This document shows, in pieces, positions 11,801-17,800 of a stretch of DNA of 64,000 nucleotides (positions are counted from its first letter, which is position 1; each line of letters opens with the position of its first letter). Made by a program: the position numbers and the translations under genes. Below the pieces are notes generated by a model. It did no database searches, was not told the origin of the DNA, and saw only the letters and a list, made by a program, of their open reading frames with translations. This DNA comes from Tubiluchus corallicola. Lineage: Eukaryota; Animalia; Priapulida. The DNA is taken from assembly GCA_030141605.1 (NCBI GenBank), contig JAQGDQ010000016.1:1332388-1396387 (forward strand). Reading direction: 5' to 3'.

Positions 11801-14800
11801 CGCATGTTTTCTGGCTTATTTTCTTTTGAATTAGCGACATGTTTCTTCTGTTTTTCAAACGGCAGATGATGGTGAGACTTATTTGTTGTAAATTTGCACA
11901 GTGATGCACCCTTGTTTTCGATGGCATCTCAAACTGTGGGCAGCACGTCCACAAAGTTGTCGTCTTCCTCCTCTAAAGTGCACAACCTTTGTGAAAATCT
12001 GTGTTGTAAACAATACTGCACAAACCTTCTGTCATAAAATGAATCATCAATGGTGCAGGGTATTTTCGAAATTTAGCAATAGGAAAATCGGTATCAAGTA
12101 ACATTTTAACTTTAGAAAATACGGTTTGTTCTCATCATTTTAAGAGGAAAAACTATTTCCGATACCTGGTGGCTAGCTTTTGTAGCCTGGTGACACTTGA
12201 ACACAATCAATCAACATTACTTAACTTGTTGAACAAGCTTATATTAGATTTGCTTACTCAGTGGGTTTTACTTGTTTCTTATTATGATACTTGTAGTCAT
12301 TGATTTCCCAGCTTTGTGACCCTTTATTTAACAGAAATTGAGAAAATTAGTAGGCCGGATTTGTTGTATTAGTCGGCTTCGATGTTTTGCACAACTTTCT
12401 TTCTACACCCTTTGCACTTATGACATACATTTCAGCTTTACATTTAGCTACATAGTGAAAGAGCTGCTGCTTTTTACAGTAGCGCCAGCAGATTATTAGG
12501 TAATGCCTTTGTTCTAGTGATCTATTAGCAAGTCGTCTGTTGTAGCAGTCGGTGTTTGTGGGTTTTCTAGGAAATATGAACAACAGATTTTATGATTTCA
12601 TTCATATTATTTAGTCTTTACGCAAAAATGATTCTCATGATGTTATTGAAATGAAGGGTATGATAAACACAATCTTAGACCTGACTCCGCTTGTGGCATT
12701 AGGAAGTCTGCTTCTGATTTGAGCGACACAAGTGGCCTTCCCTAAACACATAACCATTTTGTGAAGGTGTTGGTAACTTTTACCTGGCAGGTGTTTCATG
12801 TGGAGGTGTTATGCTGTGCTGTTTTGACAGCTGCTGTTACGTTTTAACATAAAAAGTGGTTATTTATTTAAAGCATTTGTTACAATTATGTGTTTTTTAA
12901 TCACTTATTTGATAATGTGTACTGTTTAGTTGCTTGTTTGTATTATAGATTTTTTAATTTTTGAATTCATAATTTTCTTGTTGCGTAATATAGTATACAT
13001 CCAATCTTAGAGTTGCATTTATAAATTGAAATGTAGCTATTTTATACGACTTGTTTATTCGATTTTTTACATTTACTAGAAAAGACTGTTGATATTGCAA
13101 TTATAGTAATAACTATTCTGTAGTTTTTTTTTGCAAATATGAATGTATGTGTATAGCCATCGTTTTCAGTTTTTACGTTTATAAAAATTCTCCTTTGAGT
13201 TTTTTGGCATTCATTTTTTACCACAAATAATCTGGGAATTTAGTTTAGCGGCAGAGTGACTAATCGCATTTTCCATGTGAAAAATACTGGAGTATATTGA
13301 ATCTATTGTTCACATAACTGTTAACTAAATAGCATTGTAAAGCTTTTTCACTGTTGGATAAGTAAAACCTGCATCAGCTCAAATATACAAAAACTGTCTA
13401 GTCACAAGGTACCTATATTTTCAACCTGCCAAGGAATTGTATTGACATTTTGACTTCTTAGATTGAGCTTTTTCATCTTTATTTTTATACATTTAGCCAA
13501 AAACTCAATGTTAATTAGTAGCTTCCTAATTAGATCTGGTAAAAACTTAAAATGATGGTGTACGTATGCGCTGTCAGTTATGCCTTTGTTCATAGCATGC
13601 TGTGGAGAAAATTTTGACAATGATTACTGGTACATGTATGTATTTTTCACATTCTGGGTTGAAACGGACTAGGTAGGAAACCAAGCCATTTATTGTTGAG
13701 TTCTTTTTTGCAGTCGGAACAAATAAACCAGGCATTACCGCTGAACGAAAACAAATTATACGGTCAAAAATACGTGCAATAGGCCGCATTGCACGCATGT
13801 ATCATGTCCTACGGTAAGTGGAGAAGCGAACCACCCTGGAAACCTCCGCATTGCATGGAGTGCCTAGTCGTCGATGCAAGTGCTAATGCATTAGAGATGC
13901 CTGCGGCTAATACTAACATTATATTGTTTCTAAATAGAGTGTATTTGCTTCCGAAGTGAAGAGAATTCTTAAACCTAACCGGGCACTAAACTTATTTTTT
14001 AATAAGTGCCTTACTGATTTGATATTGAAGCAACGATTCAGTAAATGCCCTTACTAGTTACACTCGGTGTTCATTTCACGGTCCCCTTATTACTTTGCTT
14101 TACAGGGAAAAATGTCGATGAGTTAATAAAAGAATTAAAACTTATTCAGCCTGTGTGTGTTCGCTCAGACCTAAGACTTGCGGCATCAGATGAAGACCTA
14201 GGTATAAGAACTGCGAATGATGCGCTTTATTATTAACAAAGTGGAGCTGAATATGAATTGTGCTGTTGCATATAATTAAATATGACTGACTAACATTTTT
14301 TTTTAAATTCTGGTTTTGTATTCAGTTAAAGAATAGGAACTTGAGCAAAAAGTACGAATTGATCTTTTTTACCTTTGTTGTTATTTAAAGCCCGTTGGCT
14401 TTTTTGTTGTATGAGTAGGTGTGCGTGTGCACGTGCGCGCGTGTGTGTGAATTTTATATTGTTATTCTAGAGTTGCCAGATTTGGCAGTTTAAGTCCTTA
14501 AACTAGTGTTGAAATTTATCAACGACCATCAACAGTTTGGAATATTATTAAAAAAATGAGAATATGCACTTATGGCAATGTTACTTTTCGTAACACTGTT
14601 CGTATTTCCTGACTTGTGTGATGTTTTGATTTGGGTGCCCTGCTGTTTTTTTTTTTGTCAGTATATGCTTATGTTCAAGTCGACCTTATGTACAAGTCGA
14701 TGTGCATTTGAAGACCAAAAATTGTATCATTTTGTATATTACCTGTGTACAAGTCCACCCAAAAATATTAAGATCTTCCAGAGTAAATGATGTCAACAAT

Positions 14801-17800
14801 GGCCGAGTAATAAATCAATAGCCTACTGTGTTAGTGTGTAAGATACGTGCAAGTGCCTGGGCCGAGTATATTATACCTACCCGATGTATATATATATATA
14901 TATATATATATATATATATACTCATGTTGAGGGCCATCAATGCAATCCATGATAATGCAGCCTGGCCTTTCATCACGCATAATTGTTTGTAATGCCTTTA
15001 ACGCTAGTATATCGAGCCCAGGATCCGTCGTAACATTTCAGTCGCTGATTTCTCAATTAAAACTAAAAACACATACCTGAAACGGCACAGTTTTATTCAG
15101 TAACATCTTTTGAATAGAAATACATCTCAGTTTTCAAATATCAATTCCGTTTATGCATATTTACGCTAGATTTTCAACAGTCAGTATCAATCTGAAGATT
15201 GTTTTTGCTCCTATATTTACATGTACTGATCGAGTGCTCCGTCGCTAGTTCATTTGCCGGTAATATATAAATTTTAACTTAATTTCACATACATTAAAGT
15301 AAATTGCAGTAATATTTCTTAATTTTGTGAAGTAAGATGCAAACATTCTCTGATGTGAAGTATCACAGTATGAGTGTTCATTCAGTCCAGTGTATAATGA
15401 AGGATTATTTCTTTACATATTCGTATTGTAGACGACTCTTTAGCGACATATCCCAAAAACTTATCTTAAGTATAAGTCGACCCGAAAAATTTCACCTTAA
15501 AATCGCCTCCCAAAAATTCGACTTGTACATAAGTATATACGGTACTATGTAGACGGTTAACTTCACTAATGCCGCCCATACTACTAATTGACATTAATTA
15601 GAGACCTTCTTAAGTGCAATATGCTGGAGTCAAAGTTTAGAAATGATAAATCTCGATTTTTATATCTTACAGTAACATCTTAGCGTCTGTTTCTTTCACC
15701 TGTTTTGTCATGCTGTATCAGTGGAGGCTTGTAGCTAAAATAAGTGGGGTGCTGCTTCAGGAAATTTTTAGCCATTGTTTTAATGCTATGCAAAATGAAA
15801 CAAAACATATGTAATTTTAATGTTGTAATTTGTAATTGTAATTTTAAACAAACAAGCATACAAAAACATACGTAAACTTGATAAAATCCTAAAAGAAAAA
15901 AATTTTGCTTACGAATAGCCTAAATTGCTGCAGTTCAAGAATATGCCAGTACATGGTTTTTAAGAACGTGACAACTGACAACTGTGTGAGTGACAGTACT
16001 TTCTCTACCTAGCAGCAGATGCTAGCAGTGCAGCACAATCATGTGCTCTGGTTCCGTACAAGTATAAAGAAAGAACTAAAGAAAAAAGACTTATTGTATT
16101 GAATATTATCGATAATATTGAGTGAAAATAGGGGGTGCTGCAGTTCCGATACTTATACACAAGCCGCCACTATGCTGTGAACTGGTTTAAGTGATTCGAC
16201 AGCACGCGCCCCTTTATATGCCATATATCTCTCATAATTTATGTACTCACAATGTTAAAAAAATTCCTGGCTTATAATCTGGCAACTCTAGCGAAAATTT
16301 AACAACTGTTTGTTACTGGTTTTTTTTTATTAATTATTTTTCTTTTTACAGTTATACTTTTTTTGGAGAACTTAATCAGTTATAGTTTGATATGCCTTTG
16401 CTTGTATATTAATAAATATTTGTCATATTTATAGACTAGAAAACTTCGGCTTCAGTAGTGGTCTGAATCCTTTATTAATATTTTGTGTGCGAGTAACTTA
16501 CTAACACGCTCATGCATGATTTGCTTGCTTGATTTGCCAACAGGGGGAGCTGCAGCAGCAGCACGGAAAGAAGTGATTAGAAATAAAATTCGGGCAATTG
16601 GTAAAATGGCAAGAGTATTCTCCGTTCTGAGGTGAGCCTTACTAATTCTTGTTTGCATGTTGCTATAAGTCTCACAGTAGTTTAGTTTTAGTGCACTGCA
16701 AGTGAAATCAAACTTTGCAAATGAGTCGAACTTTGTTACGCGTAAGCATATTTCACTGCAATAATTGTGCCTCCTTACTGTCTCAGTTAAACAAAGCAGC
16801 AATGAAACATCACATCTGACAGATAATGCAATTATTCTTTTGAAATTTTGATGCCTAAATGCAGAAGATATAAAATTTGCTGCTTATATTGTTGAGTAAT
16901 ATGTTGAAAACAACAGCAACATCAGATATTTACTACTAAGATTCTAGAGACATTTTTAGTAATCTCATTGGCACATTTGCTTTAATCGAAAGACCTCATT
17001 GATTCTTCTTTATTAGTGTCTATAAAGTTTGCAGTCTAGTATGAAAGAGGGTTTGAACAAGTACCTGTTGTTATTACTGCATTTTTATTGCTGCGGTTTT
17101 ACGTTGTACTAAAGCGGTGAATATTTGAAATTCTTTTCAGAGAAGAAAGCGAAAGTGTACTGCAGTTAAAGGGTCTCACACCTACAGGATTGCTACCACT
17201 GGGTGCTTTGTCAGGGGGAAAGCAGAGCTTGCAGGGAGGTGAGTACTACATGATGGCGGAGATATTATTGCCATCCAGCACAAATGTTAAGTGCACAGTT
17301 CATAAGTTATTTTCATTGTCACATTTTCTCTATTTGATTTAGTGGTAATTTGGTTTTCTGCTAGTTAGCCTACTTGGCTGACTTGAAGATAGTGAGGAAT
17401 CATAGGATGCTGAATAATGTATTCTGAGTCTTCATTTTTAACAAAATCATGCGCCTGTAAACTAAACAATTCTGTAAATGCCTTTTTTTACGTAACTAGT
17501 ACTGTATATTTCGTTTTTTATTTGATTTCACTATGAAAAAATACAATATTTGCTGTAAATTCTAAAACTTTAGGAGAAATATGTTACTAACGCCAACGTG
17601 AATGATACAGAATGCTGTTTCGGTAATATGAGAACAGAAGTATGTACCCGACGTTTATCAAAATATTTTAGTAACTATGCATTCAAGTTATACAACTTTT
17701 TTCTTTTAACGAGTGTTCTTCTGTTCTGCGAATATGCGGTAGCAAATTCGATTCCATCAAAGGAAAACATAGTTTTCTTGCAAAGTACTTTTTTCTGCGA

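Follow-up and report, generated by a model that had tools for sequence, protein, structure and literature searches.

The 64,000-nucleotide (nt) stretch of the Tubiluchus corallicola genome analysed here (contig JAQGDQ010000016.1; hereafter the window) carries the 3' part of a calcineurin A (CnA) gene on its + strand, and within that gene the calmodulin-binding exon is present twice, in tandem: the canonical copy, exon B, is preceded by an alternative copy, exon A. Both copies are intact, and the best explanation of the evidence is that they are probably spliced singly, yielding two differently controlled enzymes. The pair is real and seems not to have been described before; it varies a familiar architecture and is situated in an unusually conserved helix.

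The window exons form a continuous frame with 86-95% identity to animal CnA over approximately 265 columns, and encode a PPP catalytic domain, a CnB-binding helix, a calmodulin site and an autoinhibitory domain; the 5' exons were not found within the 64-kilobase (kb) window. The exon A peptide aligns with solved CnA-calmodulin peptides. The exons are as follows.

5744..5883, + strand: CnA catalytic-domain exon, the first inside the window (from sequence and frame)
6822..6899, + strand: CnA catalytic-domain exon (from sequence and frame)
8513..8607, + strand: CnA catalytic-domain exon (from sequence and frame)
9422..9547, + strand: CnA exon (from sequence and frame), which we take to hold the end of the catalytic domain and the start of the CnB-binding helix
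10175..10252, + strand: upstream constitutive exon (end of the CnB-binding helix, linker 1), whose phase-1 donor would be spliced to either A or B
13714..13813, + strand: exon A, 100 nt, the alternative exon for the calmodulin site and the autoinhibitory segment (from phases, frame and the match to Priapulus isoform X2)
16544..16631, + strand: exon B, 88 nt, the canonical calmodulin-binding exon (linked to 17141 by a contig of a presumed-RNA run)
17141..17238, + strand: downstream constitutive exon (linker 2), single in the window, duplicated in its nematode counterpart
17858..17866, + strand: 9-nt microexon of three codons in linker 2 (present in the presumed-RNA contig)
19412..19569, + strand: last coding exon (autoinhibitory domain), to the stop codon (from frame and the presumed-RNA contig)

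Exon A is an old duplicate of exon B

Exons A and B are adjacent and homologous, are bounded by AG and GT, are entered in phase 1 and left in phase 2 within the same Arg codon, and hold open frames, their lengths both being 1 mod 3; they thereby form a tandem duplicate whose phases agree and whose splice sites are valid. On recomputation these features and the coordinates agreed with an earlier reading of the window (the original prediction). The exon A donor, GTAAGT, matches the consensus at 6/6 positions, and 14 of the 20 nt before its AG are pyrimidines, as compared with 12-16 at the constitutive exons. A consensus branch point lies about 43 nt upstream of exon B; the motif is absent before exon A, but as four of the seven constitutive acceptors also lack it, its absence is uninformative.

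The two exons share 15 of 24 residues, 11 of which are encoded by different codons, and over the 24 aligned codons synonymous sites are saturated (pS 0.86, pN 0.28). When the exon B peptide was compared with the intron that bears exon A, a score of 79 was obtained, whereas 200 shuffles reached no more than 35 and the rest of the window no more than 33, and a degenerate motif occurred at exactly two places in the 64 kb, A and B, where 0.01 were expected; a chance origin of exon A is therefore excluded. Neutral decay was simulated under a Jukes-Cantor model with exon B fixed and 200,000 copies per K, a survivor being a copy that kept at least 15/24 residues with its frame and its two splice sites intact; 235, 1, 0 and 0 copies survived at K = 0.5, 0.75, 1 and 1.5, respectively. 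Together with the saturated synonymous sites, this simulation indicates that exon A is an intact, old copy of exon B under purifying selection at the protein level, which upholds the original prediction on this point. When exon A and its flanking intron were used in a word-based search for homologues, seven candidates came up, none at E<=1, a blank of little weight.

The same exon is swapped in predicted isoforms of Priapulus caudatus

Two predicted CnA isoforms of Priapulus caudatus, X1 (P0272, XP_014677380.1) and X2 (P0340, XP_014677387.1), are both 495 residues long and differ only at residues 385-409, the span of the A/B exon; in the X2 model the reading frame runs on from the alternative exon into the following one. 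Conservation of the pair was thus found in one relative, at the level of protein models, and the either/or use that had been proposed for the window gene is backed by isoforms that swap exactly this exon. With residues numbered as in human alpha (set by alignment to 1aui), exon A departs from exon B at nine core positions, 391, 394, 395, 398, 405, 406, 409, 410 and 411, and Priapulus X2 departs from exon B at six, 391, 394, 405, 409, 410 and 411, all of them among the nine. Exon A and Priapulus X2 have in common K405R, F410Y and the loss of Ser411, with Arg405 and Tyr410 identical in the two, and position 409 is changed in X2 as well. The alternative copies differ in that X2 keeps Met406 and has six residues before the core Arg-Lys, as compared with 11 in exon A. 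Identity between counterparts is 17/24 for A and X2, and 23/24 for B and X1.

The rarity of the shared residues was gauged among 377 fetched proteins, 314 of them with a complete core, a redundant (21 distinct cores) and arthropod-rich sample in which 15/45, 15/72 and 15/251 members of the large clusters were listed, so that core absences hold for listed members. Arg405 and Tyr410 were each found in only one of the 314 cores, which is Priapulus X2 itself; Met406 was present in all 314, and M406I in none.

The nearest of 33 comparison proteins to the window gene was that of Priapulus caudatus, at 14 differences over 265 columns, and the two grouped at 98/92 in a tree from which three rows were left out and whose bootstrap was not fully settled. 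In a tree made without the exon, with 20 comparison proteins, the window gene was again sister to Priapulus, still at 98/92. Support for the grouping comes from some four rare residues that the two have in common, one of them found in this pair only, and the sampling did not extend to groups such as onychophorans, kinorhynchs and echinoderms. By its placement the gene is likely to be that of a priapulid.

Exon A changes a calmodulin anchor, the autoinhibitory segment and a phosphosite

Exon A keeps Ile396, Ile400, Ile403 and Leu413, has V409M and F410Y, and bears a net charge of +7, as does exon B; its sequence describes a basic amphipathic helix with hydrophobic anchors. Because these four residues and the charge are kept, isoform A probably still binds calmodulin. 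CaMKII phosphorylates Ser411, which inhibits calcineurin (PMC11358029); Ile400 and Phe410 are calmodulin anchors in one crystal form, and oxidation of Met406 reduces the affinity for calmodulin (PMC2671406); and the end of the calmodulin exon is an autoinhibitory segment that lies in the LxVP groove (PMC8470620; bioRxiv 10.64898/2026.09.10.750614). The original prediction had assigned these roles correctly to the Ser, the Met and the end of the exon. Its statement that exon A alters exactly the Ser, the Met and the Val-Phe pair was too narrow, since nine core residues change and K405R, which is shared with Priapulus, had been missed. The changes shared with Priapulus at 405, 409, 410 and 411 cluster on the anchor, the autoinhibitory segment and the phosphosite, whereas M406I is confined to exon A; as Priapulus X2 retains Met406, a redox switch, which had been offered as one purpose of the pair, is not its conserved point. 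A and B finish on the same three residues, and these run into the CaMK consensus that was examined in tax-6.

We reasoned that exon B would give the default enzyme and exon A a second, probably tissue- or stage-restricted one, with predicted differences in calmodulin activation and in kinase control. In isoform A, without Ser411, CaMKII would be unable to turn the phosphatase down at 411. Phe410, which is both a calmodulin anchor and part of the autoinhibitory segment, is Tyr in isoform A, and the activation threshold would probably be shifted, upwards or downwards. A functional difference between the isoforms is plausible.

Probable use of one exon at a time

Inclusion of A alone or of B alone gives a full protein, and inclusion of both or neither brings in a premature stop. 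In the A+B message this stop lies 152-161 nt before the last junction, and in the message with neither exon 72-81 nt before it; by the general rule of nonsense-mediated decay, both messages are decay targets. With an A-B intron of 2,730 nt and GT-AG at all splice sites, steric and U12 exclusion are inapplicable, and of five RNA duplex tests in this one genome none exceeded its shuffles, the best being equalled by 4 of 30. With steric, U2/U12 and RNA-stem mechanisms unsupported, we infer by elimination that exclusivity comes from regulated choice coupled with decay of the wrong products.

An inverted repeat that pairs 13709-13731 with 16182-16204, over the exon A acceptor, was rejected as a mechanism, as it lies in a high-copy repeat and did not surpass shuffles in duplex tests.

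A weaker in-frame acceptor at 13732, inside exon A, would give an 82-nt version. Exon B has several in-frame internal acceptors at 16550-16574, which together with 13732 could trim linker 1; the length of linker 1 varies likewise among arthropod and mollusc isoforms. A candidate 6-nt in-frame linker 1 microexon lies at 11866-11871 (AG and GTGAGA ends, 14/20 pyrimidines), and short acidic inserts occur at this linker 1 site in other animals.

Transcript data

In one contig of a sequencing run presumed to be RNA (run X2), exon B is joined to 17141, then to the 9-nt microexon and then to the last exon. The contig differs from the window in 6/100 and 9/166 letters and probably comes from another species or population; provided that the run is RNA, it shows exon B to be a form used in a related animal. 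Exon A had no cover in this run, a blank that says nothing about its use since five upstream constitutive exons were without cover too, and in a second run, of unspecified kind, it was barely covered (depth 0.1 in its bin). We consider it likely that exon A is used in transcripts.

Exon duplication in other calcineurin A genes

A HMMER scan of 1.84 billion representatives with exon A returned a single match, P0191, an unnamed 111-residue read-through in which two tandem copies of the exon stand 17 residues apart, the second matching an oyster exon. Two Saccostrea isoforms, P0327 and P0330, differ in three residues, all at the 5' end of the exon, and Magallana-type proteins (P0335/P0326) carry both exon versions, an upstream microexon being present in some and absent in others. 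From P0191 and these isoforms, oysters seem to have a pair of their own with identical cores. Like the window gene, oyster CnA has two versions of the calmodulin exon, which the models include singly; unlike A and B, their cores are identical or nearly so, and the oyster pair is probably a separate duplication. Steric exclusion is plausible in the oyster gene, where the P0191 spacer would correspond to about 53 nt as deduced from the protein. Further oyster-type proteins in the tandem-pair set are P0336 and P0299.

In C. elegans, tax-6 exons 13a/13bc are homologous, mutually exclusive exons of the CnA regulatory region, used in neuron versus muscle (PMC12503234). The tax-6 pair encodes linker 2, the exon after the calmodulin one, whereas the window gene duplicates the calmodulin exon and has no tax-6-type pair, its linker-2 exon being single. 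Pristionchus isoforms swap the exon after the calmodulin one, as in tax-6. The Pristionchus models P0253, P0341 and P0342 hold both linker-2 exons and are probably prediction artefacts. Cassette exons 10 and 13 of vertebrate PPP3CA/B/C (PMC12503234) and the CnA-beta1 variant (PMC8523714) resemble the window gene in that splicing tunes the regulatory region; they are optional exons or an alternative tail, and the calmodulin-binding helix is not swapped. Within the accessible part of PMC12503234, CnA splice variants affect the linkers, the tail or the mutually exclusive linker-2 pair, and none lies in the calmodulin exon. The claim that such an arrangement was undescribed for calcineurin therefore has to yield for the next exon, where mutually exclusive exons are published (tax-6), and stands for this one; no description of a calmodulin-exon pair in priapulids, oysters or elsewhere was found in a literature search confined largely to journals outside subscription.

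A scan of metagenomes with a strict motif gave no match, and a loose motif gave no animal locus with two exons among the at least 120 matches listed.

Five of the loci matched by the loose motif (L008, L032, L040, L065 and L100) hold divergent, protist-like calcineurins with Arg at 405, and two of the five have in-frame stops where Gln would be expected, as in a ciliate-type code.

Alternative explanations

Several observations weigh against two differently controlled enzymes. Exon A evolves faster than exon B, as would also be expected under relaxed constraint; the Priapulus pair consists of predicted models, and the case for conservation depends on that one relative; placement of the window gene with arthropods is not formally rejected (p-AU 0.076); and no transcript join to exon A was seen, in a presumed-RNA run without cover there. 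Position 411 is itself variable among the 314 cores (T in 48, A in 4, Q in 2), and a Leishmania CnA carries Met at 409 and His at 411, as exon A does (PMC8470620), for which reasons the changes in exon A may be tolerated rather than switch-like. Given that Lys to Arg and Phe to Tyr are common conservative replacements, and that Arg405 recurs in the five protist-like calcineurins among the metagenome loci, the resemblance to Priapulus X2 could be convergent.

One alternative is that the isoforms are mutually exclusive and expressed, yet biochemically near-equivalent, each copy serving some tissues and the substitutions being tolerated drift. Near-equivalence would agree with the anchors and net charge kept in exon A, with the oyster pairs, identical in core and different at three linker residues, with similar residues in distant single calcineurins, and with tax-6, in which the effects of phospho-mimics depended more on the site of expression than on isoform sequence (PMC12503234). 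We nevertheless regard it as unlikely, in that the changes shared with Priapulus fall at 405 and 410, invariant in 313 of the 314 cores, and neither alternative exon retains Ser411.

It is quite improbable that exon A is a decayed or decaying duplicate, no longer spliced in Tubiluchus corallicola; its faster change and the M406I seen in no other core would suit decay, but frame, splice sites and hydrophobic anchors have stayed intact while synonymous sites were saturated, and a Priapulus counterpart exists. Least probable of all is a poison or terminal exon, which when placed before B would send the message to decay (as the position of the A+B stop allows) or with its donor unspliced would give an enzyme without the autoinhibitory domain (read-through of the A donor yields Arg, then a stop), since reading through the exon B donor leads to the same stop, conservation of the protein sequence would be needless in a poison exon, and the Priapulus X2 model continues in frame.

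Other features of the window

The microexon at 17858-17866 is placed as vertebrate exon 13 and is preceded by a long pyrimidine tract with a TGC just upstream, presumably the signature of neural microexons. A direct duplication of about 61 nt lies at about 19255-19380, just upstream of the acceptor of the last exon. Beyond the gene, a reverse-transcriptase remnant (25181-26320, + strand; Pfam RVT_1, E 5.5e-19) lies near a retroelement-like frame without a Pfam match (24532-25095, - strand), and an exon of a PhzF-like gene (30328-30756, + strand; Pfam PF02567, E 6.8e-19) has a short tandem repeat after it. Frames that are almost identical return at intervals of about 14-15 kb (32340-32705, 47564-47929 and 61951-62316; 43723-44196 and 58011-58421), which suggests that the right half of the window contains a large unit repeated in tandem.

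Implications

The calmodulin helix of CnA is nearly invariant in animals, with positions 405, 406 and 410 fixed in 313-314 of the 314 cores, and the known splice variants, in the parts of the literature available, alter linkers or tail only, whereas the A/B swap exchanges the helix together with the autoinhibitory segment. Taken with the nematodes (next exon) and the oysters (same exon), the pair suggests that the regulatory region has repeatedly been diversified by exon duplication; the reach of the finding is limited by an obscure lineage and a familiar architecture. Beyond the existence of two probably alternative exons, and somewhat on the doubtful side, priapulids may long have kept a second module that is swapped whole, replacing the anchor and the autoinhibitory segment and deleting the CaMKII brake, with oysters having duplicated the exon separately. 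Exons A and B offer a natural pair with which to probe Phe410 and Ser411 in calmodulin activation, autoinhibition and CaMKII feedback, and, if this fuller account is true, exon A would represent a natural, evolution-tested calcineurin variant in which kinase feedback is uncoupled from calcium activation.

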